DNA of 64,000 bases. It comes from Promethearchaeia archaeon (GTDB taxonomy: Archaea > Asgardarchaeota > Lokiarchaeia > Sigyniarchaeales > SOKP01). The position numbers were made by a program, and so were the translations under genes. The stretch covers positions 32,001 to 96,000 of the forward strand of contig JAHQWH010000193.1 of assembly GCA_029856105.1 (NCBI GenBank), read 5' to 3'. Shown here piece after piece: positions 6,011 through 45,788 of the stretch. A model generated the notes under the pieces. The model was not told where the DNA came from and did not search any database. It saw nothing but the letters and a program-made list of their open reading frames with translations. Positions within the stretch are counted from its first letter, which is position 1, and the number at the start of each line of letters is the position of its first letter.

Positions 6011-6021
6011 TTCCTTTTTTT

Positions 6022-6894: not shown

Positions 6895-6946
6895 AATATC
6901 AACTTAAAATAAACAAATTGTTTATATTAAAATAATAAGAATGTAT

Positions 6947-7537
6947 TTAAGAAAGTTTTTTGTATAAGTTATAATATATTATAAAGACCAAGCTAAAATG
7001 AACTATAATACACGCAAATATGCCTAATGTAAAAAGGAGATATGCGTTATAGATTCCTAAAAGGAATGAAAATATAATATAAGAAATCAGAATTTTTAAG
7101 TCTTTAAATCTAAACCATGTATGAATGTGATATAGCGAAAAAATTAAACTTGAAATCATAATTGTTGAAATTATTTCTAAATTTAGATGGTTTAATAAAA
7201 TCCCTATAAGATAATAGCGAAAAATTAATTCCTCCATTATCATAGTCAACGGAAAAAAGACGAGTAAAACTATTTTACCTTCATCGTTCAAAAGTACCCT
7301 GATAACATCGTGTTGTTTCATTTTTTCTTTACTTTTTTTACCGTACAAAAATGATTCCATCACTTTTCCTAAAACTAAAAGAAGCACAAGCCCTATCAAT
7401 AAAAATAACAAAATCTCTAAGTTAATTTCGCTTACGGTGAGAAAATCGGCGTAAATTCCAAAAAATATTGGAATAATTAAAACTATAACTATTGAAATTA
7501 TAGCTAAATACTTTTTTCCTAATTTCAATTCTTTCAA
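6947..7537 (-). CDS. CPBP (Abi/CAAX protease-like) intramembrane glutamic endopeptidase
   Basis: EELIFR, FSLYH and a late H within TM helices. Confidence 0.8.
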   Translation of the reverse strand: MKELKLGKKYLAIISIVIVLIIPIFFGIYADFLTVSEINLEILLFLLIGLVLLLVLGKVMESFLYGKKSKEKMKQHDVIRVLLNDEGKIVLLVFFPLTMIMEELIFRYYLIGILLNHLNLEIISTIMISSLIFSLYHIHTWFRFKDLKILISYIIFSFLLGIYNAYLLFTLGIFACIIVHFSLVFIIYYNLYKKLS

Positions 7538-7638
7538 ACCAATCTTATGATGTTGAAAATAGTAAATTGAATTACATTTAAGTAGTTGAAGCTTTCTAAT
7601 ATATATTATTTTAATCCATATAAATTAAGGTTTAAAAC

Positions 7639-9156
7639 TTGTCAGAATTGTTTCAAAAATTAGAAAATATAGTTAAGGAGAAATATATCTCGAACAGTCT
7701 TTATGTAAGACACGCATATTCGAGGAATGTAGATCCCGTATTGCAAGGTGTCCCTGACATCGTAATTAGACCGAAAGATGCAAAAGAAATTTCTGAGATT
7801 TTGAAAGTTGCAAACGAGGATAATGTCCCCGTTACTCCCCGTGGCGGCGGTGATTGTGAATTTGGCGGTAGTAAACCAATAGGAGATGGCGGCATTGTCT
7901 TGGATTTAAAACGTATGAATAATATAGTTAATTTAGATCAAGAAAATCTTATCGTAACCGTTGAGGCTGGAATCTCTTGGGCAAAGTTAAACGAATACTT
8001 GTGTCATTTTGGATTATACACTGGATGTTTAGGTCCAGGCTCCGGGTTAACTGCATCAGTGGGAGGAGGCATTTCACATCAATCAGTAGGAGGTGGGGGG
8101 TGTGCGAAATACGGTTCGTGCACAAATCAATTAGTTTCTTTAGAAGTAGTTTTACCAACAGGCGAAATTATTGAAACTGGATCTCAAGCAAATAAGTTTT
8201 CAAAGTTTCCGTTTAATAGATTTGGGAATGGGCCAGACTTAGCAAGTCTTTTTTGTGGTGATAATGGCATTTTAGGTGTAAAAACAAAAGCTTCGCTACA
8301 AATATTTCCAAAACCTCCATTTGCGGATTATAAAACATTTCTCATGCCACGAAAATCTGAAGAAGTATCAGCAAAAATTTTTACAGAATTTAGGCGTAAA
8401 GGGATTGATGTTTACGATTCGATGTATTTTATGGATTTATTAGTAAGAGTAGGCACAGAAAAAGGAATTTTTCCTTTATGGGAAAACTTAAAGAGAAAAA
8501 GGGGTACAATGTTTTACACCGTAGAAGCTAACTCGGAAAAAGAACTTGAAGAGAAAGTTAAACAGTTAGATAAGATTTTTCTACAAAATAAAGCAGAAGA
8601 ATTAGGTCCAGAAATTGCAGACGGGAACATAGGGAAATGGCACTACGAAGAGCAAGGACATTGGTTAATTGCACATAATTTATGGGGGTTAGTCCCTGGC
8701 TTTACAGCATTAGACGCAGAATGTCACACGCCAATAACCGCTTATCCCGGAATTTTAAAAGATGTAGAACTTTGGGATTTTGAACATTCTAATGAAATGG
8801 AACAAATTTTAGATGTTTCAGGAATGCGACCAATTTCTGGAGCGGGTCCAATTATACTAATTGGAGATCACAACGTTGAGCTAACAACCGGATTTACAAG
8901 CTTCGAAAGCTATATTGATGGAAAAAATTATGAATTTCTTAAAGAATTAAACATCAAACTTTGGAAATCGCTACTCGAAAGAATAACTAAACACGGAGTA
9001 ACATGGTACATGGTAGGGGATATTCTCAGTAGACTTTTGGTAGAAATTGGAGCGTTTCAGCCAGAATATTTTAAATTTATGAAATCAATAAAAAAAATGC
9101 TTGACCCTGAATTCATTTTAAGCAGAGGAAAATTTAATTTTTGGGGAGAAAAATAA
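7639..9156 (+). CDS. FAD-binding oxidoreductase, GlcD/D-lactate dehydrogenase-like (copy 1)
   Basis: PDIVIRP, VTPRGGG, VTVEAG, LEVVLPTG, G-x-LGV FAD_binding_4 motifs; TTG start. Confidence 0.85.
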   Translation: MSELFQKLENIVKEKYISNSLYVRHAYSRNVDPVLQGVPDIVIRPKDAKEISEILKVANEDNVPVTPRGGGDCEFGGSKPIGDGGIVLDLKRMNNIVNLDQENLIVTVEAGISWAKLNEYLCHFGLYTGCLGPGSGLTASVGGGISHQSVGGGGCAKYGSCTNQLVSLEVVLPTGEIIETGSQANKFSKFPFNRFGNGPDLASLFCGDNGILGVKTKASLQIFPKPPFADYKTFLMPRKSEEVSAKIFTEFRRKGIDVYDSMYFMDLLVRVGTEKGIFPLWENLKRKRGTMFYTVEANSEKELEEKVKQLDKIFLQNKAEELGPEIADGNIGKWHYEEQGHWLIAHNLWGLVPGFTALDAECHTPITAYPGILKDVELWDFEHSNEMEQILDVSGMRPISGAGPIILIGDHNVELTTGFTSFESYIDGKNYEFLKELNIKLWKSLLERITKHGVTWYMVGDILSRLLVEIGAFQPEYFKFMKSIKKMLDPEFILSRGKFNFWGEK

Positions 9157-9189
9157 AAAGCAAATGTCATTAGAAAAAGGAGCAAAAAA

Positions 9190-9504
9190 ATGTTTAGTAA
9201 AAGGACTTATCTTGAAAATAACGTTGGGAATATAGTTAAAGTAAAAGGTAGAATTTCTAAAGTAATCTGGCAACATATGACAGCTCTTATTAATTCTCAT
9301 CCACACATGAATTATTTCGACTTAGCTGATAGTTATCAAATTATAGTTTATACTAAGGACCAGATTTCTTGTGAAGGTCAGATCGAAATAACTGGGAAAG
9401 TAACGATGCTAGAGAGTGATTACAATAATCCTGAAGCCAAAATTAGCGATAAATTTGCTGAATATCATATAATTGCAGATTCTTGGAAATGTATTGAAGA
9501 ATGA
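9190..9504 (+). CDS. Small hypothetical protein, possibly OB-fold-like
   Basis: 104-aa ORF, beta-strand-rich pattern (IVKVKGRIS, IEITGKV); lies between the two GlcD-like paralogs. Confidence 0.6.
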   Translation: MFSKRTYLENNVGNIVKVKGRISKVIWQHMTALINSHPHMNYFDLADSYQIIVYTKDQISCEGQIEITGKVTMLESDYNNPEAKISDKFAEYHIIADSWKCIEE

Positions 9505-9634
9505 TTAAAAAATGAGAAAGTTTGAAAATAAATAAATCAAAAATTTTAATTTGATTAGAATTAGAAAACATTTAAGTAATTTATAGAGTCTATTATAAAT
9601 TGTTTTTATTAAATTGTTAAGAGGTTTAAGAAAA

Positions 9635-11149
9635 TTGTCTGAAGTATATAAAAAATTAGAAAATATCGTTAAAGAGAAATTCATCTCTAATAGTATTTAT
9701 GTCCGGCACGCGTATTCAAGAAATGTAGATCCCGTTTTACAAGGCGTACCTGATATAGTAATTAGACCGAAAGATGCTCAAGAGATTGCAGAAATTCTTA
9801 AAATTGCAAACATTGAAAATATCCCCGTTACACCTCGTGGAGGCGGGGATTGTGAATTCGGTGGAAGCAAACCCATAGGGGATGGTGGAATTGTATTAGA
9901 TATGAAAAGAATGAACGAGGTTATCAATTTAGACCAAGAAAATCTTATTGTAACCGTTGAAGCCGGAATTTCTTGGGGAAAATTAAACGAATACTTGTGT
10001 CATTATGGACTTTATACGGGTTGTATGGGACCGGGTTCCGGAATGACTGCGGCGATAGGAGGAGGAATATCTCATCATTCAGTAGGTGGAGGGGGGTGTG
10101 CGAAATATGGAGCCTGTACTAATCAATTGGTTTCATTGGAAGTAGTCCTTCCGACGGGTGATATCATAGAAACGGGCTCTCAAGCTAATAAGTACTCCAA
10201 ATTCCCATTCAATCGATTTGGTAATGGTCCTGATTTAGCGGGACTTTTCTGTGGTGACAATGGAATTTTTGGCGTGAAAACTAAAGTTTCGTTACAAATA
10301 TTTCCAAGACCACCATTCGCAGCATATAAAACATTTCAATTACCTCGAAAAGAGAGGGAAGTTTCGGCAAAAATAATGACTGACATTAGGCAAAAGGGAA
10401 TTGATGTTTACGATGTTATGTATATAATGGATCTTATTGTTAGAATAGGTTGTGAGCAAGGAATGTTTCCTTTTTGGGAAAACTTGAAAAAAAAGAGAGG
10501 TATAATCTTTTATACGATCGAAGCAAATTCGGAAAAAGAATTAGAGGAGAAAATAAAACAATTAGACGAAATTATGCTAAATAATAAGACAGAAAAATTA
10601 GATCCAGAAATTTCTGACGGGAACATGGCTAAATGGCATTATACTGAACAAGGTCATTGGCAATTCTATCATAACTTATGGGGCATGTCTCCCTGCATGG
10701 AACCATTAACAGCAGAATGTTTTAGCTCGATCAATTCATATCCTCCAATTTTAAACGACATTGACCAATGGGATATGGAACATAACGAAGATATGCAAAA
10801 AATTTTAAATATAACAAAAAGTCGTCCGATTGCAGGGAGTGGACCAATATTATTAATTGATGGAAATAACGTAGAAATAACATGTGGTTTTACTAGCTTT
10901 GGAAGTTATTTCGATGGAGAAATTCATGAAATTCTTAAGGAACTAGATTTAAAGCTCTGGAAATCGCTATTAGAAAGAGTGACAAAAAGCGGGGTTCAGT
11001 GGTATATGATGGGAGATTTTATGTCTCGTTTGATGGTCGATATTGGAGCTTATACGCCAGAGTATTATAATTTTATGAAATCAATAAAAAAAGTTCTTGA
11101 CCCTAAATCAATACTAAGTAGAGGAAAATTTAATTTTTGGGGGGATTGA
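9635..11149 (+). CDS. FAD-binding oxidoreductase, GlcD-like (copy 2)
   Basis: Close paralog of 7639..9156. Start moved to TTG 9635 (MSEVYKKLEN), which matches the paralog N-terminus and follows GAGG. Confidence 0.85.
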   Translation: MSEVYKKLENIVKEKFISNSIYVRHAYSRNVDPVLQGVPDIVIRPKDAQEIAEILKIANIENIPVTPRGGGDCEFGGSKPIGDGGIVLDMKRMNEVINLDQENLIVTVEAGISWGKLNEYLCHYGLYTGCMGPGSGMTAAIGGGISHHSVGGGGCAKYGACTNQLVSLEVVLPTGDIIETGSQANKYSKFPFNRFGNGPDLAGLFCGDNGIFGVKTKVSLQIFPRPPFAAYKTFQLPRKEREVSAKIMTDIRQKGIDVYDVMYIMDLIVRIGCEQGMFPFWENLKKKRGIIFYTIEANSEKELEEKIKQLDEIMLNNKTEKLDPEISDGNMAKWHYTEQGHWQFYHNLWGMSPCMEPLTAECFSSINSYPPILNDIDQWDMEHNEDMQKILNITKSRPIAGSGPILLIDGNNVEITCGFTSFGSYFDGEIHEILKELDLKLWKSLLERVTKSGVQWYMMGDFMSRLMVDIGAYTPEYYNFMKSIKKVLDPKSILSRGKFNFWGD

Positions 11150-11153
11150 AAAA

Positions 11154-12386
11154 ATGAGTGAGTTAAAACATTTAAAGAATGAATGGAAAGCCATATTCAG
11201 CTGTATGGGGTGCGGAGACTGTGGGTATGCCATAAGACCCGCAGTTGATAGATATTTAACTTGTCCGGTTTTAGAAGCTAAAGGAGAAGGAGGTTTTGAA
11301 ATTTATTTTGCTCGAGGAAGAATGAACGTTCTTAAAAGCATATTAGAAGGACAGATTCCTCTTTCCAGAGAGCTCGCAGAATTCGTTTACGAGTGTATGG
11401 AATGCGGAAATTGCACAGAAGTGTGTCATATGTCTCAAAACGAGTATATCGTTCTTAATACATCTAAATGGATCGACCATGTAAAAGTATGGGAAGCGTT
11501 ACGAAAAGATCTAATAGAAGCTGGATTCGCTCCCCTTGATAGACACGGTAAATTAATTGATTACATGAACGACGAAGGTATGAGAAATCCTTACGGCGAA
11601 GAAGAAGCAAAAAAATTCGAGTGGACAACCGAATTTCCGGAAATCAAGGATAAAGGAGATTTAGTGTTTTTTGGAGGGTGCACGATGCCTTTAAGACAAG
11701 TAGATGCATTGAAAAGTATGATGAAAATTTTAAAAGCTGCTGGAAAAGTTATCGCAATGTCTAAAAATGAGTGGTGCTGTGGTTCGGTTGCCTTAAGAAT
11801 CGGCGACGAAAAAGCTTTAACAGATATAATTAGGCATAACATAGAAGTTTTTAAGAATATGGGCGCTAAAACAGTCTTTACAGCGTGTGCAGGATGTTAT
11901 CGAACTTGGAAAAAGGATTATCCTGAATTGCTCGGTGAGGAATTACCGTTTGAAATAAAGCATATTACGGAAATTTTAGTTGAGATGTTAAATAATGACG
12001 AAATACCATTTAAATCCGTAGAAGGTTCGGAAATGATAACTTGGCACGATCCTTGCCATTTAGGCCGTCACATGGATCTTTACGAAATACCTAGAGAAGT
12101 ACTATCGAAAATTCCGGGAATTGAACTAGTAGAAATGAAAAGAAACCGTAAGAATGCCTGGTGTTGTGGAGCTGGAGGAGGCGTAAAAAGTCAATTTCCC
12201 GAATTAGCTCTTGACATCTCAAAAGAGAGAATTCAAGAAGCCATAGATACGGGCGCAAATATCTTAACTACGAGTTGTCCATTCTGTATTGGCAATTTTA
12301 GAGACGCTTATAAGGAAATGGAAACGGAAGTTCGAGAAAAAATTCAAGTTATTGATATAATTGATTTGATCGCAAATAAAATTTAA
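11154..12386 (+). CDS. Fe-S oxidoreductase, HdrD/GlcF-like (two 4Fe-4S motifs plus two CCG domains)
   Basis: CMGCGDC, CMECGNCTEVC, WCCG, CAGC, HDPCHL, CCGAGGG, SCPFC. Confidence 0.88.
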   Translation: MSELKHLKNEWKAIFSCMGCGDCGYAIRPAVDRYLTCPVLEAKGEGGFEIYFARGRMNVLKSILEGQIPLSRELAEFVYECMECGNCTEVCHMSQNEYIVLNTSKWIDHVKVWEALRKDLIEAGFAPLDRHGKLIDYMNDEGMRNPYGEEEAKKFEWTTEFPEIKDKGDLVFFGGCTMPLRQVDALKSMMKILKAAGKVIAMSKNEWCCGSVALRIGDEKALTDIIRHNIEVFKNMGAKTVFTACAGCYRTWKKDYPELLGEELPFEIKHITEILVEMLNNDEIPFKSVEGSEMITWHDPCHLGRHMDLYEIPREVLSKIPGIELVEMKRNRKNAWCCGAGGGVKSQFPELALDISKERIQEAIDTGANILTTSCPFCIGNFRDAYKEMETEVREKIQVIDIIDLIANKI

Positions 12387-12462
12387 AATATTAAATTTTT
12401 TTCTATTTCTACTTTTTATTAAGTATGGAAATATTCAAAAATGACCAAATTTTTTCCTTATT

Positions 12463-13140
12463 ATGGGGAATTTGGATATTTATCTACAACCTACTAAATT
12501 TTTTGATTTTAACAAGAAATTTGTTCGGGATAAAGCTTTTAAAATTACAGAAGGGTTAGAAACTGAAAAAGAAAAAGCAATTGCTCTTTTCTATTGGGTA
12601 AGAGATGAAATTAAATATAACATGCACACATATATTCCGTCAATAAAGGCAAATTTTAAAGCAAGCGTAACTCTACGACGAAAAAATGGTTTTTGCGTCT
12701 CAAAATCCGTACTATTATCTTCCTTTGCGAGGGCTATTGGAATTCCCGCGAGTATTCATTTAGTAGACTTGATAAATCATAAGATCTCTCAAAAAATTAT
12801 AGATTTTATGGGAACTAATGTCATGCATTATCATGGCTATAGCGAGCTTTATCTGAATAATAAATGGGTAAAATTAACGCCTTCATTTGACCCGAAAACA
12901 GCAATAAAGGGTGGTTTTATTCCTATGGTTGAATTCGATGGCGAAAACGACGCTGTTTTTGCTGTATACGATAATGAAGGTAAGCTATTTGGAGAATACA
13001 CCATGGATAGAGGGATACACGCAGATTTACCGCTTGAGGAAATTGAACGAGTATTTGAAGAAAAATATCCCATATTTTCTGAATATAAAAAAGGACTCCC
13101 TATTCTACCCGTAAAAGATAAAACTTTAACATATAAATAA
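12463..13140 (+). CDS. Transglutaminase-like protein
   Basis: LFYWVRDEIKY, GFCVSKSVLL (catalytic Cys), HGYSELYLNNKW. Confidence 0.85.
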   Translation: MGNLDIYLQPTKFFDFNKKFVRDKAFKITEGLETEKEKAIALFYWVRDEIKYNMHTYIPSIKANFKASVTLRRKNGFCVSKSVLLSSFARAIGIPASIHLVDLINHKISQKIIDFMGTNVMHYHGYSELYLNNKWVKLTPSFDPKTAIKGGFIPMVEFDGENDAVFAVYDNEGKLFGEYTMDRGIHADLPLEEIERVFEEKYPIFSEYKKGLPILPVKDKTLTYK

Positions 13141-35499: not shown

Positions 35500-36444
35500 T
35501 TATTTTTCTTTTTGCTTAACAATTATAACGATCGATACGACAATGATAACAAGTCCTATTAAATGAAAGATTGTAAATAGTTCTCCTAAAAATAACGTAG
35601 CAAATATCGCAGTAATAATTGGCGTTGGCGAAAAAAGGATTGTTGCCTTCGAAACATCTAAATATGAGAGCGTTTTGTACCAGCAATATAATCCCGCCCC
35701 ATAAACGGTTCCCATTGAGATGTAATAGAATTGGTTGATTGGTACAAATAATAGGCTAATATTCTCGAAAGGAAAGAATAGAAAATAAGTAGAAAATAAA
35801 ATAATACCACTCAAAATATTTCTAATAAAAACCATCTGAGTCGGAGTAGCTTCATTTCGAACAAAAACCGGCTTAGTAATTGAATGTCCAAACATCCATA
35901 AACAAGTAATAAATAACATAATCAACACGCCACTCAAGATATCTAAACTAAAAGTTAAGAGATTAAATGATCCTTGCGAAATAGCAAGGATTAACCCAAA
36001 AAATAAAATCGTTGAAAAAATTATTTGTACTTTAGTTATCCGCTCTTTTAAAATTAGAAAACCAAAAATCAAACTAAAAAAGACTGTTGTTTTTTGAGTA
36101 AGAGACCCATTAATTGCTCCTGCTAATTCATATCCTATAAAAAATAGTAGTTGGTTAAAACCAAAGATTATTCCAATAAATAGAAAGAGCCAAATATTTT
36201 TTCTCCAGTTTTTAATCATGGAATTGGTATGATTGGTACTTGCATTATTATTCTTAGCTAGATTCACTTTTTTCTCTATAATAATTAATGGTAAGAAAAG
36301 CGCTGCTTCTACTAAACAAGTCATTACGGCGAAAATGTGAGCATCAAGCGCAACTGGGCGGCTGTTAGCAATTATTGGTTGAAAACCTACAAAAATATTC
36401 CCAATAACCCCGAAAATTAAACCTTTCTTTAAGTTGGTGTTCAA
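35500..36444 (-). CDS. EamA/DMT family transporter
   Basis: About 10 TMs, LKERIT and FLGE motifs; paralog of 37725..38699. Confidence 0.88.
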   Translation of the reverse strand: MNTNLKKGLIFGVIGNIFVGFQPIIANSRPVALDAHIFAVMTCLVEAALFLPLIIIEKKVNLAKNNNASTNHTNSMIKNWRKNIWLFLFIGIIFGFNQLLFFIGYELAGAINGSLTQKTTVFFSLIFGFLILKERITKVQIIFSTILFFGLILAISQGSFNLLTFSLDILSGVLIMLFITCLWMFGHSITKPVFVRNEATPTQMVFIRNILSGIILFSTYFLFFPFENISLLFVPINQFYYISMGTVYGAGLYCWYKTLSYLDVSKATILFSPTPIITAIFATLFLGELFTIFHLIGLVIIVVSIVIIVKQKEK

Positions 36445-36562: not shown

Positions 36563-37723
36563 ATGAATAGTTTCGAACGAATATGGGCAGCTTTAAATCT
36601 CGAAGAACCCGATAGAATTCCAACACATACGATAAATATCGATGGTAATGTTGCTGATAAGATCATAGGTCGTCCAGAAAGAACTGCGTTTGATGTATTT
36701 GACGATTTGGAAAAACAATACCCAGATGATTGGCTTGATAAAATCAATTCTATCATTGTCGATATTGAAATATCTACTTTTTCGAAAGCAGTTAGAGCGG
36801 GGTATGAAATAGGGTTTGATGGCGTTGGAGTACAATATATACCATTCATCTTCGAAAGTCAGACAGAACTGACGGATGTATTTGGAAAGAGACATAAAGT
36901 AAGAAATATTGATGGAAACCCTTATCCAGATTATTATGGAGGATACATTAAAAATCGAGATGATTGGGAAAAATATCCTAAGCCAGATATGAAACAGGAA
37001 TTTAAAACTGCTAAAAAATTTTATAAAGGAGTTCTAAGAAAGTGTAGAGATATCAAAGACGATATTTGTATTATAGCTCAAAATGCTTTAACGTCAGTAT
37101 TTCCACCTGTATGGCAAGGCATGGGAATGAATAACTTTGCTCGCGCTTTAAAGAACGACCCAAAATTAATTGAAGAACGTTTTCGATTTTGCACTGACTT
37201 CGTCTTGACCGTTTTTAGAGCGTATTCCGATTGTGGTGCAAAGATTTTTCTCGAAGGAGGGGACATAGCACATAAAGGAGGTCCAATGATGAGTCCAAAA
37301 TACTTCAACAAATATCTTTTACCACGATACCAAGAAGTTTCAGAAGCTATACATGATTGGGGCGGGAAATATATATTACACACAGATGGTGACGTTACTT
37401 CTCAATTAGATTTTATTGTTGAATCTGGTTTTGATGGCCTCCAATGCCTCGAACCTCCTTGGGTTGATCCTTATTTGGTTAAAAAGAAAGTTGGAGATAA
37501 ATTATGCTTATCTGGAAACATTGATACAAAACATATCTTAGTCGATGCTACTAAACAGGAAGTAGAACAAGCCGTGGCGAATGCGATAAAAGCAATGGGT
37601 AAGGGGGGAGGATTTATGATATCTCCGGCTAACTTTCATCCAAACATGACAGTTGATCGTTTAAAATGGATGATTGAAGCTGCTAATAAATTAGGCGTTT
37701 ACCCCTTACATAATATTGAGTAA
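36563..37723 (+). CDS. Uroporphyrinogen decarboxylase / MtaA-CmuA methyltransferase superfamily protein
   Basis: EEPDRIP, DIAHKGGPMMSP, HTDG, CLSGNID, GGGFM. Confidence 0.85.
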   Translation: MNSFERIWAALNLEEPDRIPTHTINIDGNVADKIIGRPERTAFDVFDDLEKQYPDDWLDKINSIIVDIEISTFSKAVRAGYEIGFDGVGVQYIPFIFESQTELTDVFGKRHKVRNIDGNPYPDYYGGYIKNRDDWEKYPKPDMKQEFKTAKKFYKGVLRKCRDIKDDICIIAQNALTSVFPPVWQGMGMNNFARALKNDPKLIEERFRFCTDFVLTVFRAYSDCGAKIFLEGGDIAHKGGPMMSPKYFNKYLLPRYQEVSEAIHDWGGKYILHTDGDVTSQLDFIVESGFDGLQCLEPPWVDPYLVKKKVGDKLCLSGNIDTKHILVDATKQEVEQAVANAIKAMGKGGGFMISPANFHPNMTVDRLKWMIEAANKLGVYPLHNIE

Positions 37724-37724
37724 A

Positions 37725-38699
37725 TTACTTTTTCTCATCAAGCATAAGATTCTTTTTTAACTTTTTTTCTCTTACAATCATGTAAATTGAAATTATAATA
37801 ATAATCATGCCTATTAAATGGAAGATTGTGAATATATCGTCCAGAATGATCCAAGCGAATAAAGCTGTTATAATTGGTGTTACTGAATTTATTACGCCAG
37901 CTTTTCCTATTTGTATATAAGATAAAGTTTTATACCAAAGAAATAAGCTTACACTGTAATCTAGTCCCATCAGAAGATAATATATGAAATAATTAGGGTT
38001 GAATACAATATTTATTCTGTCTAGAGGAAAAAAAATGAAATATGTAGAAAATAAAATTATTCCACTTAACAGACTCCGGATAAAAACTACTTGAATAGGG
38101 GAGAGCTCATTTCTGTCGAATCTAGATTTAGTGAATGTGTGGACGAGAGTGAACAAGGCAACATCTATCAGTAAGATTAGAACTCCAACATTAAATTCAA
38201 GCAAATTAAAAGATCCCTGTGTTATTGCAATATATACTCCGAAGAATAGAATTGCGCAGAATAGAAGTTGAACTTTTGAAATACTTTTTTCTTTTAAAAA
38301 TATGTAACCAAATAATAAAGCGAAAAAAACTTCACTCTTTAAAGTTAGTGAGCTATTTATTGCCCCTGCAAGGTCAAAACCCACAAATAATAGCACAGGG
38401 ACGATTGAAAAGGTAATTCCTATTATTGCAAGAAACTTTAAGTTGGTTTTCTTTTTCCATCCGTTTAACAAGGAATATAACTTTTCATTTGAGTTTACAT
38501 CTATTGACGATTTTAGTTTGTGTCTTTCAAGTACAAACAACGGAAAAAAGATTGTAGCCATAATTAAAGCTGTTACTGCAGCAAATATGTAAGAATCAAT
38601 AACTGATGGTCTAGAATTGGCAATAATCGGTTGAAGAGAGATCCCTAATACACCAATTGTGCCACAAATCAATCCTTTTCTTAAATTATAATTTTCCAT
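37725..38699 (-). CDS. EamA/DMT family transporter
   Basis: About 10 TMs; shares QPIIANSRP and WYKTLSY with 35500..36444. Confidence 0.88.
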   Translation of the reverse strand: MENYNLRKGLICGTIGVLGISLQPIIANSRPSVIDSYIFAAVTALIMATIFFPLFVLERHKLKSSIDVNSNEKLYSLLNGWKKKTNLKFLAIIGITFSIVPVLLFVGFDLAGAINSSLTLKSEVFFALLFGYIFLKEKSISKVQLLFCAILFFGVYIAITQGSFNLLEFNVGVLILLIDVALFTLVHTFTKSRFDRNELSPIQVVFIRSLLSGIILFSTYFIFFPLDRINIVFNPNYFIYYLLMGLDYSVSLFLWYKTLSYIQIGKAGVINSVTPIITALFAWIILDDIFTIFHLIGMIIIIISIYMIVREKKLKKNLMLDEKK

Positions 38700-38800
38700 T
38701 TGTCGTTTGTAAATTCAGATTTAATTGATACTAGTTAAAAAATAGTCTCTTTTTAAAATTTAAGTAATTAACAATTTAAACAAAAGAAAAGTAAAAAAGA

Positions 38801-40618
38801 TTATTTAGAATAACTTCCAAATTGAGGAAATGTCTTTAATTGGGTCGAATTGAAGATAGGCCCATCTTTACATACGCTAATATCGTTCTTTTCTCCTACA
38901 CAACAAGAACCACATAATCCTACTCCACATTTCATTTTTCTTTCCAGACTAGCTTGAATTTCGATGTTTTTAGAATCTGCGATTTCGAGAACCCGTTTCA
39001 TCATGATTTCCGGTCCACATGTAATAATAAGATCTATATTTTCCTTTTCAATTATATCTTCAATAGGATCCGTTACAACACATTTCTTACCTACAGACCC
39101 GTCTTCCGTAGTACACATCGTATTTGGAATTAGATCTATTAATCGATCGGCAAATATTAACGAGGGCTCATCTTTCGCTCCGATCGCTACAAATACATTC
39201 TTTTTATTTAATCTTAGAGATTCTGTTATAGTAATTAACGCTGGAATTCCCATTCCACCTCCTACTACAAGGATACTTTTTGCTTTTTCGTAATTAAACG
39301 AGTTTCCAAAAGGACCTCTAATCCCTATAGAATCTCCTTCTCTTAATTCAAATAATTTTGATGTTCCTTCACCAATTTTTTGAACTGTTACTTCGATAAG
39401 ATTACCATTTATGCTAGAGATGGACATTGGTAAGAAATCAATATCGGGAAGCCATAATATAACAAACATTCCGGGTTTGTAGGCTTTCGCAATTCGCGGG
39501 TTTTTAACTATGAAGCTTTTAATATCGTGAGCATGCTCTTTTATCGATTTAATTTTTACTATATCAGTTTTATTTCTTGTAATGTCTAAAATCAAATCCT
39601 CCTTTTCGTGTTCTAGAGGCTTTGTTTCGAGGAAACCTTGTTCGACAGCTAGCTCAAAAACTTCTTTACCTCTTTCAGTTCGCACAATTATAGTATTCCA
39701 TCCGTCTTCACTGCCAAACTCTCCAACAGATATATCTGCAAACGAGGCTGTATAATCGGAACACGAAAAACAAGCAGCTCTAATTGCTTTATCGTATAAA
39801 TAATTAAGGGGTATTTCTTTGACTGTTGAATCAACGCTTACTTTCATTTTGAAATTATCTTTATCGATATCAATTTTATCAACCTCGCTTAGGTTGATGT
39901 TAAATTCCTCAAACGCGATTTTTAATAATTGGTTGTAATAAGTTCCAAAACAAAAGGTTCCAATGGCTAACGTTACTAGATCGTAAGCTTCGTAATCGAA
40001 AGCAGGATGGTTTTGTACTTTTCTCAAAGCTTGTATTTGGCATGGAGTGCCTACTACCGCGATATCTTTACACTCCTTATTGATGGCATCGCCTAGAAGC
40101 GAAAGAGTTGGACCTTGACTTGGTTTATACCCAGCTCCTTTAAGTAAATCTTGTTGACTCTGAGCAATTATTGGAAAAGGTCTGAAGTTCTCATCTTTAT
40201 CAGTAATAATCGATGCGTCGATGAGACCATTCTCCATAGCAACCCATAGTAATCCTGTTAAAGGTCCTGCTTCAGCTGGGATCTTTTTACGTGCTTTATT
40301 TGTTAATTTTACAGAAACTATTTCGATATAGTGACCCAAAATTTTATCGTGTTCTTTACCAAAAACCCATTTATCTAATAGTGACAGAGGAATCTTCTCA
40401 TTTTCAGTTTTCGGACAGAGATTATAACAGAGCCCGAATCCGTCTTTACAAGTATTCATATCTTTGCAAGATCCATCTTCTATTGGGATTTCTTTTTCTC
40501 TATCAAATTGAATGCTAGCACAAAAGGCTCCACAAGCTCCACAGTATACGCATTTTCCCGTTTGAATTATTTCCTCGTATAGTTCTTTCCAACCTTTTTG
40601 AGTTTTCCCAATATACAT
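38801..40618 (-). CDS. Fusion: FrhB/FdhB (F420-binding beta subunit) plus PyrK-like FAD/NAD(P)/[2Fe-2S] electron transfer subunit
   Basis: N-half: CVYCGACGAFC, VGTPCQ, GTFC, CFSCSD...ADISVG, W..IIVRTERG. C-half: RGPFGN, GGGMG, CGPEIMM, ERKMKCGVGLCGSC, VCKDGPIF. Confidence 0.88.
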   Translation of the reverse strand: MYIGKTQKGWKELYEEIIQTGKCVYCGACGAFCASIQFDREKEIPIEDGSCKDMNTCKDGFGLCYNLCPKTENEKIPLSLLDKWVFGKEHDKILGHYIEIVSVKLTNKARKKIPAEAGPLTGLLWVAMENGLIDASIITDKDENFRPFPIIAQSQQDLLKGAGYKPSQGPTLSLLGDAINKECKDIAVVGTPCQIQALRKVQNHPAFDYEAYDLVTLAIGTFCFGTYYNQLLKIAFEEFNINLSEVDKIDIDKDNFKMKVSVDSTVKEIPLNYLYDKAIRAACFSCSDYTASFADISVGEFGSEDGWNTIIVRTERGKEVFELAVEQGFLETKPLEHEKEDLILDITRNKTDIVKIKSIKEHAHDIKSFIVKNPRIAKAYKPGMFVILWLPDIDFLPMSISSINGNLIEVTVQKIGEGTSKLFELREGDSIGIRGPFGNSFNYEKAKSILVVGGGMGIPALITITESLRLNKKNVFVAIGAKDEPSLIFADRLIDLIPNTMCTTEDGSVGKKCVVTDPIEDIIEKENIDLIITCGPEIMMKRVLEIADSKNIEIQASLERKMKCGVGLCGSCCVGEKNDISVCKDGPIFNSTQLKTFPQFGSYSK

Positions 40619-40619
40619 T

Positions 40620-41219
40620 TTATTTACCTTCCTCCTTTAATTTTTGAAGAAATTTTTTTGCTTCTTGTTTTCCAAGCTCAAACGCTTCTATATTTGTGTC
40701 TAAGGTTGAACTTGGCACAAACTTTTTAATCGTTTTTAAAGCAGATTCTTCAGAAAATATCCCTGCAAGTATAGTAAAAACAGCAAACAAAATTGTATTT
40801 CCAAATACTATGTTACCAAATTTTTCAACAGCTAATTTCTGAACGGGGATGTTCAAGGCTTTACTTATTTTTTTTGCCCCTCTAAATTTGTTTATCGTTG
40901 AGGGATCCCAAACTAAAAACCCGGTATTTTTATCAGATTTAACAAAATTAGCTTTTATATCATTAGCAGATTCTTGAGACAAAACAATTAGAAAATCGTA
41001 CGGCTTTAAGGCTTTCGGGTAATCAATATATTCAATACTTTTATCTAAATCAACGACAACTTCCGCCCAACATTTTCCTCCGCGTGCAGCGGCAGAATAA
41101 GCTTCTGTTTGCGTAGCAGCGAGACCTTCATAGATTGAACTTGCCATAATTATCATTTTGCTGAGAGTGATAACTCCTTGGCCGCCAAATCCACTTACTC
41201 GAATTTCGTATCGAGACAT
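40620..41219 (-). CDS. korC: 2-oxoacid:ferredoxin oxidoreductase gamma subunit
   Basis: SGFGGQGV, AARGG, NIEAFELG. Confidence 0.88.
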   Translation of the reverse strand: MSRYEIRVSGFGGQGVITLSKMIIMASSIYEGLAATQTEAYSAAARGGKCWAEVVVDLDKSIEYIDYPKALKPYDFLIVLSQESANDIKANFVKSDKNTGFLVWDPSTINKFRGAKKISKALNIPVQKLAVEKFGNIVFGNTILFAVFTILAGIFSEESALKTIKKFVPSSTLDTNIEAFELGKQEAKKFLQKLKEEGK

Positions 41220-41222
41220 TGT

Positions 41223-42140
41223 TTATGTGCCTCCTCTTGCGATTTTTTGTATTTTAGCGTATTCTTCTGAGTACTCTGGTTTATCTGGCTCGTATCTAAA
41301 TTCACCAATAATGTATTTATTAAACAATTCTACTTCACTCATGAATTTCGCTTGGTTTTTTCTTACGCTATTTCGCTTAATCCATTCTATCATCTTACCT
41401 GCTGTATCCATTTTTTCTCCTTTTTCTCCTAAATATTCAGCTCCTAAACTACTCAAATTTTTTCTACCAAAATAAGTAACACAAGGCGTGATTAGCTCAA
41501 TTACTGAAGTGCCTTTATGTTTTAAGGCTTTTCTGAAATACTTCATGAAAGTACGAGGATGAGCTACGGTAGTTCGTGCTACATAAGTTGCACCAGCTGC
41601 AAGAGCAAGTTTCACTCCATCACTTCTATTTTCAAACATTTTATATGGTGTTGTTGTACTATTAGCACCGTACAGGGTTGTTGGCGCACCTTGACCACCT
41701 GTCATTGCGTAAATACTATTGTTAAATATTAATATAATGCAATCTATATTTCGGCGACAAGTATGGATAAAATGGTTCCCTCCAATTCCTAAACAATCGC
41801 CATCTCCTGTAAATATTATAGGTTTCATTTGAGGGTTGGCCATTTTCATGCCAGTTGCTAACGAGGGTGCCCGACCGTGGAGCGATAAAACTTTTTGGGT
41901 AGCATGATGTACTAGTAATAACATCTGACTATAGCATCCAATACCGATAACTAACGGGTATAATTTTGGATCTAGTTTTTCGTCTTCAAATATTCGGGTA
42001 AAAATATGGGCGATGATCCCATAACCGCATCCAGCGCAAAATCTAGACGAATAATTACCCAATAAATGGCCCGCGTAAGAGATTAATACGTAAGGATTCT
42101 CTGGTTTCTCGTTTGGAAACATTGGTCCTATTCCCGACAT
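41223..42140 (-). CDS. korB: 2-oxoacid:ferredoxin oxidoreductase beta subunit (TPP-binding)
   Basis: CAGCG, GIGC, HGRA, GDGD...NN, YAMTGGQ. Confidence 0.92.
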   Translation of the reverse strand: MSGIGPMFPNEKPENPYVLISYAGHLLGNYSSRFCAGCGYGIIAHIFTRIFEDEKLDPKLYPLVIGIGCYSQMLLLVHHATQKVLSLHGRAPSLATGMKMANPQMKPIIFTGDGDCLGIGGNHFIHTCRRNIDCIILIFNNSIYAMTGGQGAPTTLYGANSTTTPYKMFENRSDGVKLALAAGATYVARTTVAHPRTFMKYFRKALKHKGTSVIELITPCVTYFGRKNLSSLGAEYLGEKGEKMDTAGKMIEWIKRNSVRKNQAKFMSEVELFNKYIIGEFRYEPDKPEYSEEYAKIQKIARGGT

Positions 42141-43309
42141 TAATTAGCCACCTCCTTAATAACTTTTAAAATATCATGTGGATGATGTATTTCACATGCT
42201 TTTGGAATTCTAATAACTGGTGTGCTAAGCTCAGTTACCCGTTCGACTTGTTCTGCTATAATTCCTGTATAGTTTAACTCAGGAACTATAACTGCTTTAA
42301 CATCCTTAACAGCTTCTTTAACTTTCTCGTCTGGAAAAGGCCAGATTGTTATAAGTCTGAAAATTCCAACTTTTATTCCTTCTTTCCGTGCTAAATCAAC
42401 CGCACGATAACTGGTTCTAACAGGTAGACCATAAGCAATTATAACTATTTCAGCATCGTCCAATTTATAAGTGCTTGTTAGCGAAATTTTATCTATATTG
42501 CTAGTTATTTTATCGATCATCATCTCTATAAATTGAAGTGGTTTGGGTGTCGGTAAACCTTCGTAATTGTGAGGTTGCGAGAGAAACATTCCTGGACAAT
42601 AATCAGTACCTATAATCGGTGGTTTAGGGATAACATATTTCCCGAGGTTCTCGTCTTTATAAGAAAATTTTTTGGTAAAATCATTTGGTAATTCACGGTC
42701 AATTACTCTCTTTAACACCTCTTCTTGTTGTGGTATATTAACTACTTCGTGAAGGTGTCCTAAATAAGCATCTGACATAATAAACACTGGGCAACGGTAT
42801 GTCTCAGCAAAGTTAAATGCTGTAATTGTTAAATCATATAATTCTTGACAACTCATTGGTGCTAATGTTATAACTTGAAATTCACCATTTCCCGCAAAGC
42901 GCATTAACCCTATATCATTATGATGCGGTTCTGTTACATATCCCGTCCCAGGACCATTACGCTGTACATCACAAAAAACAAACGGGATTTCTAAATTTGC
43001 TGCCATTGAGATCGTTTCGGTCATTAAAGAAAGACCAGGACCAGAAGTTGCTGTCATAGCCTTAGCGCCGACTAAGGAAGCCCCGATTACAGAATTAATA
43101 GATGCTATTTCGTCCTCCATTTGCATACAAACACCTCCAATTTGTGGCAATCTAACTGCAAGATGTTCAATTACCTCGGTACTTGGGGTGATAGGGTAAC
43201 CTCCAAAAAATTTCAATCCAGCAGCTATAGCGCCTTCGGACATCGCTATGTTTCCCATCATTAGATGTTTACCTTCTGGTAAGAATCTTTTACTATTTTC
43301 TATATCCAT
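42140..43309 (-). CDS. korA: 2-oxoacid:ferredoxin oxidoreductase alpha subunit
   Basis: GYPITPSTE, EDEIAS, TATSGPG, QRNGPGTG. Confidence 0.92.
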   Translation of the reverse strand: MDIENSKRFLPEGKHLMMGNIAMSEGAIAAGLKFFGGYPITPSTEVIEHLAVRLPQIGGVCMQMEDEIASINSVIGASLVGAKAMTATSGPGLSLMTETISMAANLEIPFVFCDVQRNGPGTGYVTEPHHNDIGLMRFAGNGEFQVITLAPMSCQELYDLTITAFNFAETYRCPVFIMSDAYLGHLHEVVNIPQQEEVLKRVIDRELPNDFTKKFSYKDENLGKYVIPKPPIIGTDYCPGMFLSQPHNYEGLPTPKPLQFIEMMIDKITSNIDKISLTSTYKLDDAEIVIIAYGLPVRTSYRAVDLARKEGIKVGIFRLITIWPFPDEKVKEAVKDVKAVIVPELNYTGIIAEQVERVTELSTPVIRIPKACEIHHPHDILKVIKEVAN

Positions 43310-43323
43310 TTTTTTTCACCTTG

Positions 43324-43593
43324 TTATACTTTGGCTTTATTAGCCACATTTTCATTTTCTGATTCTTGCAAAATGTATATACACCAATCTGGACATCCAT
43401 ATTCGCATCGTTTACACGCTGTACAATATTTTGCTTTCCCTTCTTTAACTCGTGGAATATAAGCAATTCTCATATTTAACTCGTCTCCCATTTCTAAAAT
43501 ACCTGTTGGGCACACATAGACACAAACTTGACAACCACCACACCTATTTTTATTTAGGAATAATGAAAAATTCTTCTCTCTATTCTCTAACAA
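43324..43593 (-). CDS. korD: Ferredoxin-like delta subunit (2x[4Fe-4S])
   Basis: CGGCQVCVYVCP, CTACKRCEYGCP; first gene of the operon. Confidence 0.88.
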   Translation of the reverse strand: MLENREKNFSLFLNKNRCGGCQVCVYVCPTGILEMGDELNMRIAYIPRVKEGKAKYCTACKRCEYGCPDWCIYILQESENENVANKAKV

Positions 43594-43749
43594 TTTTGGA
43601 ATTTTAGACCAACTCAGTTTTTATCTGATATTTTATTTAAATATTTTTACCGTTATAAATTTCAATTTAATTTATTTTAAGTCTTTCTGCAATTATTCTT
43701 AAATAAAATAACATCAAATCTTAATTAAAACTAAAAAGTTAATTAAATT

Positions 43750-44487
43750 ATGAGAAAGATAATTTATTTAGGGTGTTTATCAAGCTCAAAATACAAAGAA
43801 ACTTGCGAAAATGGAATAAAGATCATTAAATTCCTTGACAATGAATACGAAATTCTTGATGGTGTCCCTTGTTGCGGCGCGTTATCTTATCACATTTCCA
43901 GCGACGAAGAATTAAAGAAACACGTAGAATTTGTGAATAATTGGTTTAAATCAAACGATGTTTCTAAAATTGTTACGATTTGCGCAGGTTGTTATAATTA
44001 TCTAACTCGATATTATAAACAATATTTAGGCTCTGATTTCAATGTCGAAGTTAAACACCTTTTACAATTTATGGCTACACCTGAAAATTTAAAGAAGTTG
44101 AATTTAAAGTATTCTGGAAAAAAATTAATTGTCAATTATCACGATGCTTGTCATCTACGAAATGCGATTCCACCAATCATCGAAGAACCAAGAACAATCA
44201 TCAACTCGATCGATAATATAGAAATATTCGAAATGGAAAACACAAAAATTAATAGTATTTGTTGTGGGGCTGGCGGAGGTGTCTATGCCATTTTTAAAGA
44301 AAATAGCGATTATAACGCTAAATCGATTTTCAATCAAATGAGGAAAGGAAAAGCTTTGTTAACAGCCTGTCCATTCTGTTATACTGCATTACAAAGAATA
44401 CGAAAAGAAAATAATATTAGGAAACCTGTAATTAAATTTGAGGATTTTTTAATCAAAATAATGAATCAGGAGGATCCCTTAATATGA
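43750..44487 (+). CDS. CCG-domain Fe-S protein (LutA/HdrB-like)
   Basis: CCG, CAGC, HDACHL, CCGAGGG, ACPFC. Confidence 0.85.
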   Translation: MRKIIYLGCLSSSKYKETCENGIKIIKFLDNEYEILDGVPCCGALSYHISSDEELKKHVEFVNNWFKSNDVSKIVTICAGCYNYLTRYYKQYLGSDFNVEVKHLLQFMATPENLKKLNLKYSGKKLIVNYHDACHLRNAIPPIIEEPRTIINSIDNIEIFEMENTKINSICCGAGGGVYAIFKENSDYNAKSIFNQMRKGKALLTACPFCYTALQRIRKENNIRKPVIKFEDFLIKIMNQEDPLI

Positions 44488-45788
44488 GCGAAAAAGGAAA
44501 AGAGCTATATGAAAAAGTAAAAGAAAAGATAGAACAATTAAACGATAAAGATTCAGTCTACAGCAAGTTTGGAGATATCTGGAAGCTAGCAAGCTTAGGT
44601 AAGTATCGTTCCTTCGATTTACGATATCTTTACGAAGATACTAGTAGAGAATTTGTTGAAGAACACAAAGAACATCTTACCAAAATACGTGAAGATTTCG
44701 TTGAAAATATTGATGACTATGTAAAAAAATGCATAGATGTGATGCGTAAGACTAATAAATTTAAGGTTTATTACGCCAAAACAAACGAGGAAGCCCAAAA
44801 AATTTTTATGGAAGAGTTAGGAGATAATAAAGTTTTATACAAATCAAAATCTTTGGAAGCAAAGGATATAGGAATAATTGATGTTTTAAAGAAAAATAAT
44901 ATAGAAATTAAAGAAACAGATTTAGGCGACGTCCTATGCCAACTATTTGATTACAAATATCCAAGTTTCACCTTAGCTCCTGGAGTTCAATTTACTGAAA
45001 AAGAAATCGTCGCAAAAATGAAGGAAAAATATGGAATAGATATAGAGGAGAAAGCAGAAGCAATAGTAGCCTATTACCGGAAGAATTATCGCCCAGAATT
45101 ACTTAATGATGTTAAGGTTTCTCTTACATCAGCTAATGTAATTGCTGCAAATGATGGTTCTATCGTTCTAATTGAGAATGAAGGAAATATTAGTCTCTTA
45201 ACTAGGGCGACTGAGAAACACATCGTTGTAGTAGGAATACAAAAAATCGTTCCAAATGTTTTTGATGCTCTAATTGTAGCTAAATTACATGAGAGAATAA
45301 ATAATGTAGATGGAGCTTATATTAGTTTTATATCCGCGGCATCAAATACTTCCGATATTCAAGGAAAGCGTGTATTTGGGATGTATGGTGCGAAAGAAGT
45401 AGTTATAATATTTGTAGATGACTGGAGAATTAAAGCAGCAAAAGAAAATCTATTTTATAAAGATATTCTAAAATGTATCTCATGTAAAAGTTGTGATTAT
45501 GTATGCACAGCTTCTCGAGCATTTGGTAATATCTACGCATCAAAATACGGTATTGGAGCAATAAATATCGTTCGAGATTATATTCATAATGGAATCGAAG
45601 CTGCTGTTAAAGATGGTTTATTCTTATGTACAGGTTGCGAAAATTGTACGAATTGGTGTCCTGTGGGAGTTGATTTAGCAGAAATCATGAAAAAACTTAA
45701 AAAAGAAGCTACTGAAAAAGAGCTTTGTCCTCCTTCGTTAAAAGAATATAAAGAAAAAATATTCAGAGATAAGAACCCATTCATTTAA
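44484..45788 (+). CDS. LUD-domain Fe-S protein (LutB/LldF-like)
   Basis: KSKS, ETDLG, ENEGN, TSDI, CISCKSC...C, CTGCENCTNWCP; ATGA overlap with upstream gene. Confidence 0.85.
   Translation: MSEKGKELYEKVKEKIEQLNDKDSVYSKFGDIWKLASLGKYRSFDLRYLYEDTSREFVEEHKEHLTKIREDFVENIDDYVKKCIDVMRKTNKFKVYYAKTNEEAQKIFMEELGDNKVLYKSKSLEAKDIGIIDVLKKNNIEIKETDLGDVLCQLFDYKYPSFTLAPGVQFTEKEIVAKMKEKYGIDIEEKAEAIVAYYRKNYRPELLNDVKVSLTSANVIAANDGSIVLIENEGNISLLTRATEKHIVVVGIQKIVPNVFDALIVAKLHERINNVDGAYISFISAASNTSDIQGKRVFGMYGAKEVVIIFVDDWRIKAAKENLFYKDILKCISCKSCDYVCTASRAFGNIYASKYGIGAINIVRDYIHNGIEAAVKDGLFLCTGCENCTNWCPVGVDLAEIMKKLKKEATEKELCPPSLKEYKEKIFRDKNPFI

Follow-up and report, generated by a model that had tools for sequence, protein, structure and literature searches.

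A ferredoxin–FrhB–PyrK fusion protein encoded as the fifth gene of a 2-oxoacid:ferredoxin oxidoreductase operon in Asgard archaea

The stretch of 64,000 nucleotides analysed here (the window) comes from a Promethearchaeia archaeon (GCA_029856105.1, contig JAHQWH010000193.1). It carries an operon for the four subunits of a 2-oxoacid:ferredoxin oxidoreductase (OFOR), korD-A-B-C, followed by a fifth gene for a 605-residue protein that joins a ferredoxin domain and an FrhB-type module to a PyrK-type FAD/NAD(P) module. We propose, at about even confidence, that the five genes encode one enzyme, in which the fifth subunit provides the KorDABC core with a built-in electron-output module to F420 and/or NAD(P)+. 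The basis of this proposal is the domain composition, the conserved ligands, the conservation of the operon, the joint absence of kor and fusion genes, the separate pyrD-pyrK pair, and the F420 genes of the organism. Docking of the fusion on Kor, the identity of the acceptor, the direction of electron flow and the oxoacid substrate are what we infer beyond these observations. The operon contains the following genes:

43324-43593, minus strand: korD, delta subunit, 89 aa, a two-[4Fe-4S] ferredoxin (Fer4_7 and related Pfam domains; OorD model NF007205 at 62.5 bits, below cut-off)
42140-43309, minus strand: korA, alpha subunit, 389 aa (Pfam POR_N and PFOR_II; NF006412 at 403.5 bits against a cut-off of 411)
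41223-42140, minus strand: korB, beta subunit with thiamine pyrophosphate (TPP) and a [4Fe-4S] cluster, 305 aa (Pfam TPP_enzyme_C; NCBIfam; nearest solved chain 8YS5_C)
40620-41219, minus strand: korC, gamma subunit, 199 aa (Pfam POR domain; NF006323 below cut-off)
38801-40618, minus strand: the FrhB-PyrK fusion gene, 605 aa, fifth and last of the operon (open reading frame list, Pfam, NCBIfam)

The intergenic gaps measure 14 nt (korD-korA), −1 nt (korA-korB), 3 nt (korB-korC) and 1 nt (korC-fusion). The list of open reading frames (ORFs) thus bears out the tight packing, with gaps of at most 14 nt, that had been described in an initial annotation of the window. By Pfam, the Kor core contains all four subunit types, alpha, beta, gamma and delta. 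The fusion gene is neighboured by genes for an EamA transporter and an MtaA/URO-D-like protein, and a divergent LutA/LutB-like pair lies on the korD side. ORF and Pfam reading of these neighbours revealed no pyrD, hydrogenase or fpo gene adjoining the operon. This agrees with the initial annotation, which had noted the absence of an adjacent pyrD or hydrogenase large subunit; the canonical adjacent pyrD-pyrK pair of the same genome is located separately, on contig C191.

The fusion protein is divided into three modules, which are arranged from the N-terminus to the C-terminus as follows:

40349-40618, minus strand: ferredoxin domain, residues 1-90, two [4Fe-4S] clusters (Cys 23, 26, 29, 33, 51, 57, 64 and 68; aligns to the ferredoxin domain of 8RIU_B)
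39569-40348, minus strand: FrhB-type flavin/[4Fe-4S] module, residues 91-350 (Cys 193, 223, 283 and 286; short linker helix at 337-347)
38801-39568, minus strand: PyrK-type FAD/NAD(P) module, residues 351-605 and stop codon (GGGMG at 453-457, CGP at 534-536, [2Fe-2S] Cys 564, 569, 572 and 583)

Pfam matches place the protein in the FrhB/FdhB superfamily (PF04422 and PF04432), with FrhB_FdhB_N at residues 116-175 (38.0 bits; gathering cut-off 22) and FrhB_FdhB_C at residues 184-336 (140.1 bits; cut-off 23.3), and locate DHODB_Fe-S_bind at residues 559-594. All 16 cluster cysteines and the GGGxG and CGP motifs are invariant in 24 of 24 fusion sequences, including one that is 43% identical; C193, C223, C283 and C286 are also invariant in 35 of 35 FrhB-like single proteins. 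The architecture originally read from the sequence, ferredoxin plus FrhB plus a PyrK-type FAD-NAD(P)-[2Fe-2S] module, is therefore confirmed by Pfam, NCBIfam and the invariant cluster cysteines. An AlphaFold model built with a 97-sequence alignment reached a mean predicted local distance difference test score (pLDDT) of 89.8 and a predicted template-modelling score of 0.82; it was used in place of the single-sequence model, which was unusable (mean pLDDT 33.7). Sequence and Foldseek comparison with solved structures found no solved chain that holds both halves of the fusion.

The best solved relative of residues 13-350 is 8RIU_B (E 3.8e-57, 28-32% identity). In Foldseek, the N-terminal half superimposes on this chain with a target template-modelling (TM) score of 0.83 and a root-mean-square deviation of 2.2 Å, and 8RJA_E was matched as well. 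Further sequence matches of the FrhB module are to FrhB (E 1e-44) and to HCAR (5DQR, E 2e-15). 8RIU_B is the zeta subunit that makes the CO dehydrogenase (CODH) of Ca. Ethanoperedens thermophilum F420-reducing; it contains a ferredoxin domain (two [4Fe-4S] clusters) and an F420-reductase domain (FAD and one [4Fe-4S] cluster), and docks on the CODH core via its N-terminal ferredoxin domain (PMC11493965). Biochemical assays of the Ethanoperedens CODH and Fwd complex (8RJA) showed that F420, not ferredoxin, is reduced (PMC11493965). Since the enzymes of 8RIU_B and 8RJA_E are proven to be F420-reducing with the same domain set, residues 1-350 have the architecture of a plug-in F420 reductase of proven type. 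The gene context is also of this type, in that a two-cluster ferredoxin with an F420-reductase-type domain is encoded beside a normally ferredoxin-dependent enzyme. The initial annotation had known of no characterised example; this holds for the whole fusion but not for the FrhB half, for which 8RIU_B and 8RJA_E are precedents (PMC11493965). Identity with FrhB proper or FpoF was considered and set aside, as the scores lie below equivalog cut-off and neither hydrogenase nor fpo genes are adjacent.

The C-terminal half (residues 351-604) passes the PyrK equivalog NF000796 with 254 bits against a cut-off of 224 and contains the four-Cys [2Fe-2S] motif. Foldseek matched it to PyrK 5KSW_B (target TM 0.83), NfnA 5JCA_S (0.81) and sulfhydrogenase gamma, and it scores equally well against the NfnA chains 4YLF_A and 5JCA_S and against PyrK. 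The first [2Fe-2S] ligand is Cys in the fusion (KCGVGLCGSC), whereas it is Asp in 4YLF_A, 5JCA_S and an NfnA-like protein of the same genome (DGTGMCG). NfnA identity was rejected because this Asp and an adjoining NfnB/GltD-type subunit are both missing. The sulfhydrogenase gamma subunit (HydG/ShyC) was likewise rejected, with 84.9 bits against 650 and 94.8 against 600 and no Fer4_22 protein in the operon. The nearest stand-alone relatives of this half (37-45% identity) are ordinary PyrKs, lying directly beside pyrD in 38 of 57 loci. Because the fusion passes the NF000796 cut-off, it is labelled in databases as 'dihydroorotate dehydrogenase electron transfer subunit'. The source names in the databases agree with that score, and taken literally they would make the fusion a true PyrK, which serves dihydroorotate dehydrogenase B as electron-transfer subunit. 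This reading has practically no chance of being right and was rejected: the genome has its pyrD-pyrK pair on C191, the fusion is never found beside pyrD and always beside korC (20 of 20 loci), and 350 additional residues of ferredoxin and FrhB precede the PyrK-type module. The label is probably wrong, and hundreds of database entries that bear it are probably misnamed.

The fusion is conserved as a unit. More than 120 protein clusters at 71-93% identity share its length and domains. Clustering at 50% leaves about three full-length fusion clusters, and no split orthologues were seen among the clustered homologues, where half-length proteins reach 42-43% identity at best. All 20 loci with upstream sequence in species-representative genomes keep the order korD-A-B-C-fusion, including that of Ca. 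Sigynarchaeum springense, whose fusion is 42% identical; korD is conserved from residue 1 in relatives. In every one of these loci korC lies directly upstream of the fusion, far more consistently than chance would allow. Among 301 sampled Asgard genomes, the fusion was detected in 43 of the 68 from one Loki-type family and in none of the 232 from 29 other families; submitters' phylum labels for the metagenome-assembled genomes that bear it vary. The best KorA is at most 44% identical in all five fusion-less genomes of the same family that were compared (98-100% complete), against 74-96% in carriers. The five genes are thus present or absent together in the genomes checked. These results support the tight fusion-kor link claimed at the outset, which is kept in 20/20 loci and matched by co-absence in 5/5 genomes. 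Neither of two outcomes named by the initial annotation as refuting its proposal, halves encoded separately next to pyrD and a kor link that is not conserved, was observed. Its suggested synteny check across Asgard genomes held in part: the order is kept in related loci, but its range is not Asgard-wide, comprising one sampled family and the divergent Sigynarchaeum copy.

In one study, two metatranscriptome libraries yielded contigs that match much of the operon at 90-97% identity; one of these contigs, 222 nt long, bridges the korC/fusion junction. These are assembled contigs from relatives and not from this strain, in which uncovered stretches are uninformative and DNA carry-over is possible, and one run (X16) contributes two small pieces only; they give a weak hint that the operon is co-transcribed in a relative.

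The genome contains cofG and cofH, adjacent on contig C18, and cofD and cofE on contig C123, all scoring over curated cut-offs. With these four genes present, F420 is available to the organism, and the search for cof genes advised in the initial annotation was successful. Across the family, cofH occurs in 102 of 121 genomes, fusion carriers or not, and 20 of 20 listed fusion-less genomes common to both samples have it. Eight fusion carriers have no cofH match; a closer check of five of these revealed cofD over cut-off in four and cofG in two. As the checked carriers mostly retain cofD or cofG, the missing cofH genes look like assembly gaps. The distribution of F420 genes does not discriminate among the readings weighed below. 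At least eight FrhB-family paralogs are encoded in the genome, which suggests an active F420 pool. No Mer homologue over cut-off was detected in the genome, and the two NiFe hydrogenase large subunits (contigs C19 and C225) are not located beside FrhB paralogs.

FrhB modules stand beside PyrK-family proteins in two further places of the same genome, an HdrA-Flx-like cluster and an NfnA-like locus. The former (L180, G000:C74:16000-29000, positions 4884-12976, minus strand) encodes a 1004-aa double HdrA, MvhD/FlpD, a 337-aa Fe-S protein, a Fer4_22 protein (HydB/FlxB-like), a PyrK/FlxA-like protein and a ferredoxin-FrhB protein, and resembles a cluster of the Flx-Hdr type to which an FrhB module has been appended. 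The latter (L181, G000:C11:15000-28000, positions 4624-8176, minus strand) encodes an NfnA-like protein of 275 aa with the Asp [2Fe-2S] ligand, followed by a 912-aa ferredoxin-FrhB-NfnB/GltD-like fusion, and a 556-aa protein with an Mpt_N domain lies in its vicinity.

In the enzyme that we propose, electrons from the TPP site would pass to the KorB cluster and on to the two KorD clusters, from which they would enter the N-terminal two-cluster ferredoxin domain of the fusion. The ferredoxin domain would feed the FrhB-type [4Fe-4S]/FAD site, where F420 would be reduced, and the PyrK-type [2Fe-2S] cluster would feed the second FAD, where NAD(P)+ would be reduced. The net reaction would be 2-oxoacid + CoA + F420 and/or NAD(P)+ → acyl-CoA + CO2 + F420H2 and/or NAD(P)H, without free ferredoxin. 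The initial annotation had proposed a hub between ferredoxin, F420 and NAD(P), a transhydrogenase or a bifurcating/confurcating enzyme; as a functional proposal this stays hypothetical, and the [2Fe-2S] site, with its four Cys, is of the PyrK type and not of the Asp-bearing NfnA type.

Several points weigh against this five-subunit enzyme. Kor keeps its own delta ferredoxin subunit, and free ferredoxin could be the acceptor; a simple wire does not explain the need for two exits; the occurrence of cofH does not track the fusion within the family; and DNA carry-over may account for the RNA-library contigs. The FrhB equivalogs on residues 92-357 are below cut-off (TIGR03289, 188 bits against 331.5; FpoF, 113.6 against 475). 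HCAR, a member of the FrhB family, does not use F420, and in Fsr co-crystallisation gave no F420 density, the site being only a presumed positively charged cleft (PMC10229431). The low FrhB and FpoF scores, together with the occurrence of the FrhB fold in non-F420 enzymes such as the matched HCAR 5DQR, speak for an output to NAD(P)+ only. The FrhB-like module would then be a flavin/Fe-S relay that does not bind F420 and the complex a 2-oxoacid:NAD(P)+ oxidoreductase, consistent with a PyrK half that passes its curated cut-off and descends from NAD-linked PyrKs. Against this, the module resembles proven F420 enzymes far more closely (8RIU_B at 3.8e-57, FrhB at 1e-44) than HCAR (2e-15), and the genome has at least eight FrhB paralogs and F420 biosynthesis genes that are found nearly family-wide; we regard this alternative as quite unlikely. 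Kor already has a complete delta subunit, co-transcription is no proof of a complex, and the ferredoxin domain at the N-terminus could take electrons from free ferredoxin. The fusion could accordingly be a soluble protein, co-expressed with Kor but not one of its subunits, that acts as a ferredoxin:F420/NAD(P)+ oxidoreductase or an F420H2:NAD(P)+ transhydrogenase. This is very unlikely in view of the 1-nt gap to korC, the adjacency in 20/20 loci down to 42% identity and the co-absence of kor and fusion, and the homologous zeta subunit binds its enzyme through the same ferredoxin domain (PMC11493965).

The two flavin sites on a single chain need explaining, and an Nfn-like confurcation or bifurcation would do so. 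The FAD of the FrhB site would be the branching point, at which low-potential electrons arriving from Kor by way of the [4Fe-4S] chain and those of NADH, arriving by way of the PyrK FAD and the [2Fe-2S], jointly reduce two F420, or the reverse. The cofactors map one-to-one on NfnAB, with a flavin at the centre that accepts hydride, an arm of [2Fe-2S], FAD and NAD, and a low-potential arm of several [4Fe-4S] clusters. In addition, the PyrK half scores as well against 4YLF_A and 5JCA_S as against PyrK, and FrhB modules are paired in this genome with an NfnA/NfnB system and an HdrA-Flx-like cluster. Yet the first [2Fe-2S] ligand is Cys as in PyrK and not the Asp of NfnA, and the FAD in Fsr and in the F420-reducing CODH is described as a plain entry or exit of an Fe-S relay (PMC10229431, PMC11493965). 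We consider such a mechanism unlikely, although it carries the most weight among the alternatives. More doubtful still is the broader claim that KorDABC-fusion represents a new class of flavin-based confurcating/bifurcating enzyme, an F420 analogue of Nfn on an oxoacid oxidoreductase, in which the low-potential electrons of the 2-oxoacid and NADH would drive the reduction of two F420, or the reverse.

FrhB genes also accompany other OFORs. FrhB paralogs ('FrhB6') have been noted in gene clusters of pyruvate:ferredoxin oxidoreductase (PFOR) in genomes of anaerobic methanotrophic archaea of the ANME-1 group (PMC9012536). Metagenomes show a matching pattern: of the 80 loci examined that carry stand-alone ferredoxin-FrhB relatives, 16 (L125 and 15 others among L115-L177) have an OFOR alpha and/or beta gene adjacent on the same strand, directly upstream of FrhB in 15 of the 16. 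The cluster in L125 (3777-7008, plus strand) reads PorA-PorB-FrhB and has a 2-nt gap; neither a gamma nor a delta subunit gene was found near it. In a FastTree phylogeny, the metagenomic OFOR-linked FrhBs form a clade apart from the FrhB halves of the fusions, which make up one clade; the tree is a quick one with long branches and supports the separation weakly. FrhB-like genes thus seem to end OFOR clusters independently in metagenomes, which would provide a precedent for FrhB on OFORs.

The best NCBIfam models of the Kor subunits are those of 2-oxoglutarate:ferredoxin oxidoreductase (OGOR) or of generic OFORs, none of which reaches its cut-off (403.5 bits against 411 for alpha, 198 against 364 for beta), and 8YS5_C, the closest solved chain to KorB, is the beta subunit of a 2-oxoglutarate ferredoxin oxidoreductase. 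These sub-cut-off scores point to an OGOR-like or generic OFOR. The five-subunit OFOR of the Hydrogenobacter/Aquifex type is set apart by its description (PMC13768988), the order here being D-A-B-C-fusion.

Divergent from korD (43750-45788, plus strand) are genes for a CCG-domain LutA-like protein and a LUD+Fer4 LutB/LldF-like protein, which together resemble a split LdhH. Of 12 related loci whose upstream sequence extends for at least 3 kb, 8 keep the pair beside the kor operon. This conserved neighbourhood hints at 2-hydroxyacid-derived oxoacids as Kor substrates and raises the possibility that the locus encodes a route from 2-hydroxyacid to 2-oxoacid to acyl-CoA. Downstream of the operon are an EamA transporter gene (37725-38699, minus strand), a gene for an MtaA/URO-D-like methyltransferase homologue (36563-37723, plus strand) and a second EamA gene (35500-36444, minus strand); the two EamA genes and the MtaA/URO-D-like gene recur downstream in about 12 related loci. 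Inspection of the sequence flanking the operon identified two non-coding features:

43594-43749, minus strand: AT-rich intergenic stretch that separates korD from the divergent LutA-like gene
38778-38800, minus strand: T-rich run straight after the stop codon of the fusion gene

A TATA-box-like word, TTTAAATA, is present at 43634-43641 on the minus strand, about 45 nt ahead of the korD start, and is a putative korD promoter element by the archaeal TATA consensus. The T-rich run may be an oligo-T terminator of the archaeal kind at the end of the operon, and the two flanking regions would fit a single transcription unit.

Two relatives differ locally from this layout. A stretch of 2.5 kb in L021 (4024-6535) and of 0.7 kb in L024 (5806-6537) lies between korB and korC, the latter being recognisable from residue 46 onwards. 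The gap in L021 contains a 679-aa ORF with Ig-like domains, and neither an intron nor a mobile-element signature was found in this insertion. A few hundred bases upstream of korD in L024 (2776-2873, plus strand), the Rfam family PYLIS_3 (mttB pyrrolysine insertion sequence) was matched just over the gathering score.

No description of an FrhB-PyrK fusion was found in the literature. F420, FrhB and Asgard all go unmentioned in a review of PFOR diversity from November 2026 (PMC13768988), and the Asgard isolation paper models 2-oxoacid oxidation as strictly ferredoxin-coupled (PMC7015854). An FrhB add-on that turns a ferredoxin enzyme into an F420 enzyme is known; the OFOR host, the addition of PyrK and the lineage are new. 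For Loki-type Asgard archaea, both cultured and inferred, 2-oxoacid oxidation is regarded as the core of energy metabolism. If its electrons were delivered directly to F420 and/or NAD(P), models of redox balance, hydrogen/formate yield and syntrophy would change for these archaea. F420-linked 'ferredoxin' enzymes, which have so far been shown only in an ethane oxidiser (CODH and Fwd), would then include OFORs and reach into the Asgard archaea. Its two-flavin layout makes the fusion a concrete candidate for a new electron-bifurcating enzyme, and confurcation, if true, could allow these syntrophic Asgard archaea to re-oxidise NADH from amino-acid catabolism.

The closest known counterparts of the fusion are found for its individual parts. 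The Ethanoperedens zeta and Fwd subunits, like the fusion, have a ferredoxin domain followed by an FrhB-type [4Fe-4S]/FAD module and are add-ons to a normally ferredoxin-dependent enzyme. Their hosts are CODH and Fwd rather than an OFOR, however, and they end in a C-terminal dimerisation tail where the fusion, known from genes alone, has a complete PyrK-type FAD/NAD/[2Fe-2S] module. Fsr (7NP8, 7NPA) is also a single chain in which ferredoxin and an FrhB-type module come first and a second redox module follows, but its partner is a siroheme sulfite reductase drawing electrons from F420H2, whereas that of the fusion is a second dinucleotide-type flavin site. The ANME-1 FrhB6 and the metagenomic PorA-PorB-FrhB clusters resemble the kor operon in having a ferredoxin-FrhB gene straight after the OFOR genes, which suggests F420-linked oxoacid oxidation. 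They differ in that the FrhBs belong to a separate clade, the OFOR alpha and beta subunits are of a different type (22-33% identity) and none has a PyrK module; these systems are known from genomes only.

PyrK (1EP3_B, 5KSW_B) has the same fold as the C-terminal half, the four-Cys [2Fe-2S] motif and an equivalog that the fusion passes, but the fusion has no PyrD partner and its PyrK-type module sits behind a ferredoxin-FrhB module in a kor operon. NfnAB (4YLF, 5JCA) shares the fold of its small subunit with the C-terminal half, as well as two flavins and a [2Fe-2S] plus [4Fe-4S] arm; in contrast, the fusion has no NfnB/GltD module and has Cys where NfnA has Asp, and bifurcation by the fusion is hypothetical. 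OFORs with a built-in pyridine-nucleotide output are also known, namely the pyruvate:NADP+ oxidoreductase of Euglena and Cryptosporidium and the NADH-dependent phenylglyoxylate dehydrogenase PadEFGHI. Pad subunit names appear as weak NCBIfam matches here, and the likeness is otherwise drawn without sequence comparison. As in our proposal, the core of these enzymes is extended by a flavoprotein that passes electrons to NAD(P)+ and not to free ferredoxin; they differ in using P450-reductase-like or GltD-like modules, in having no FrhB/F420 site and in belonging to other lineages.

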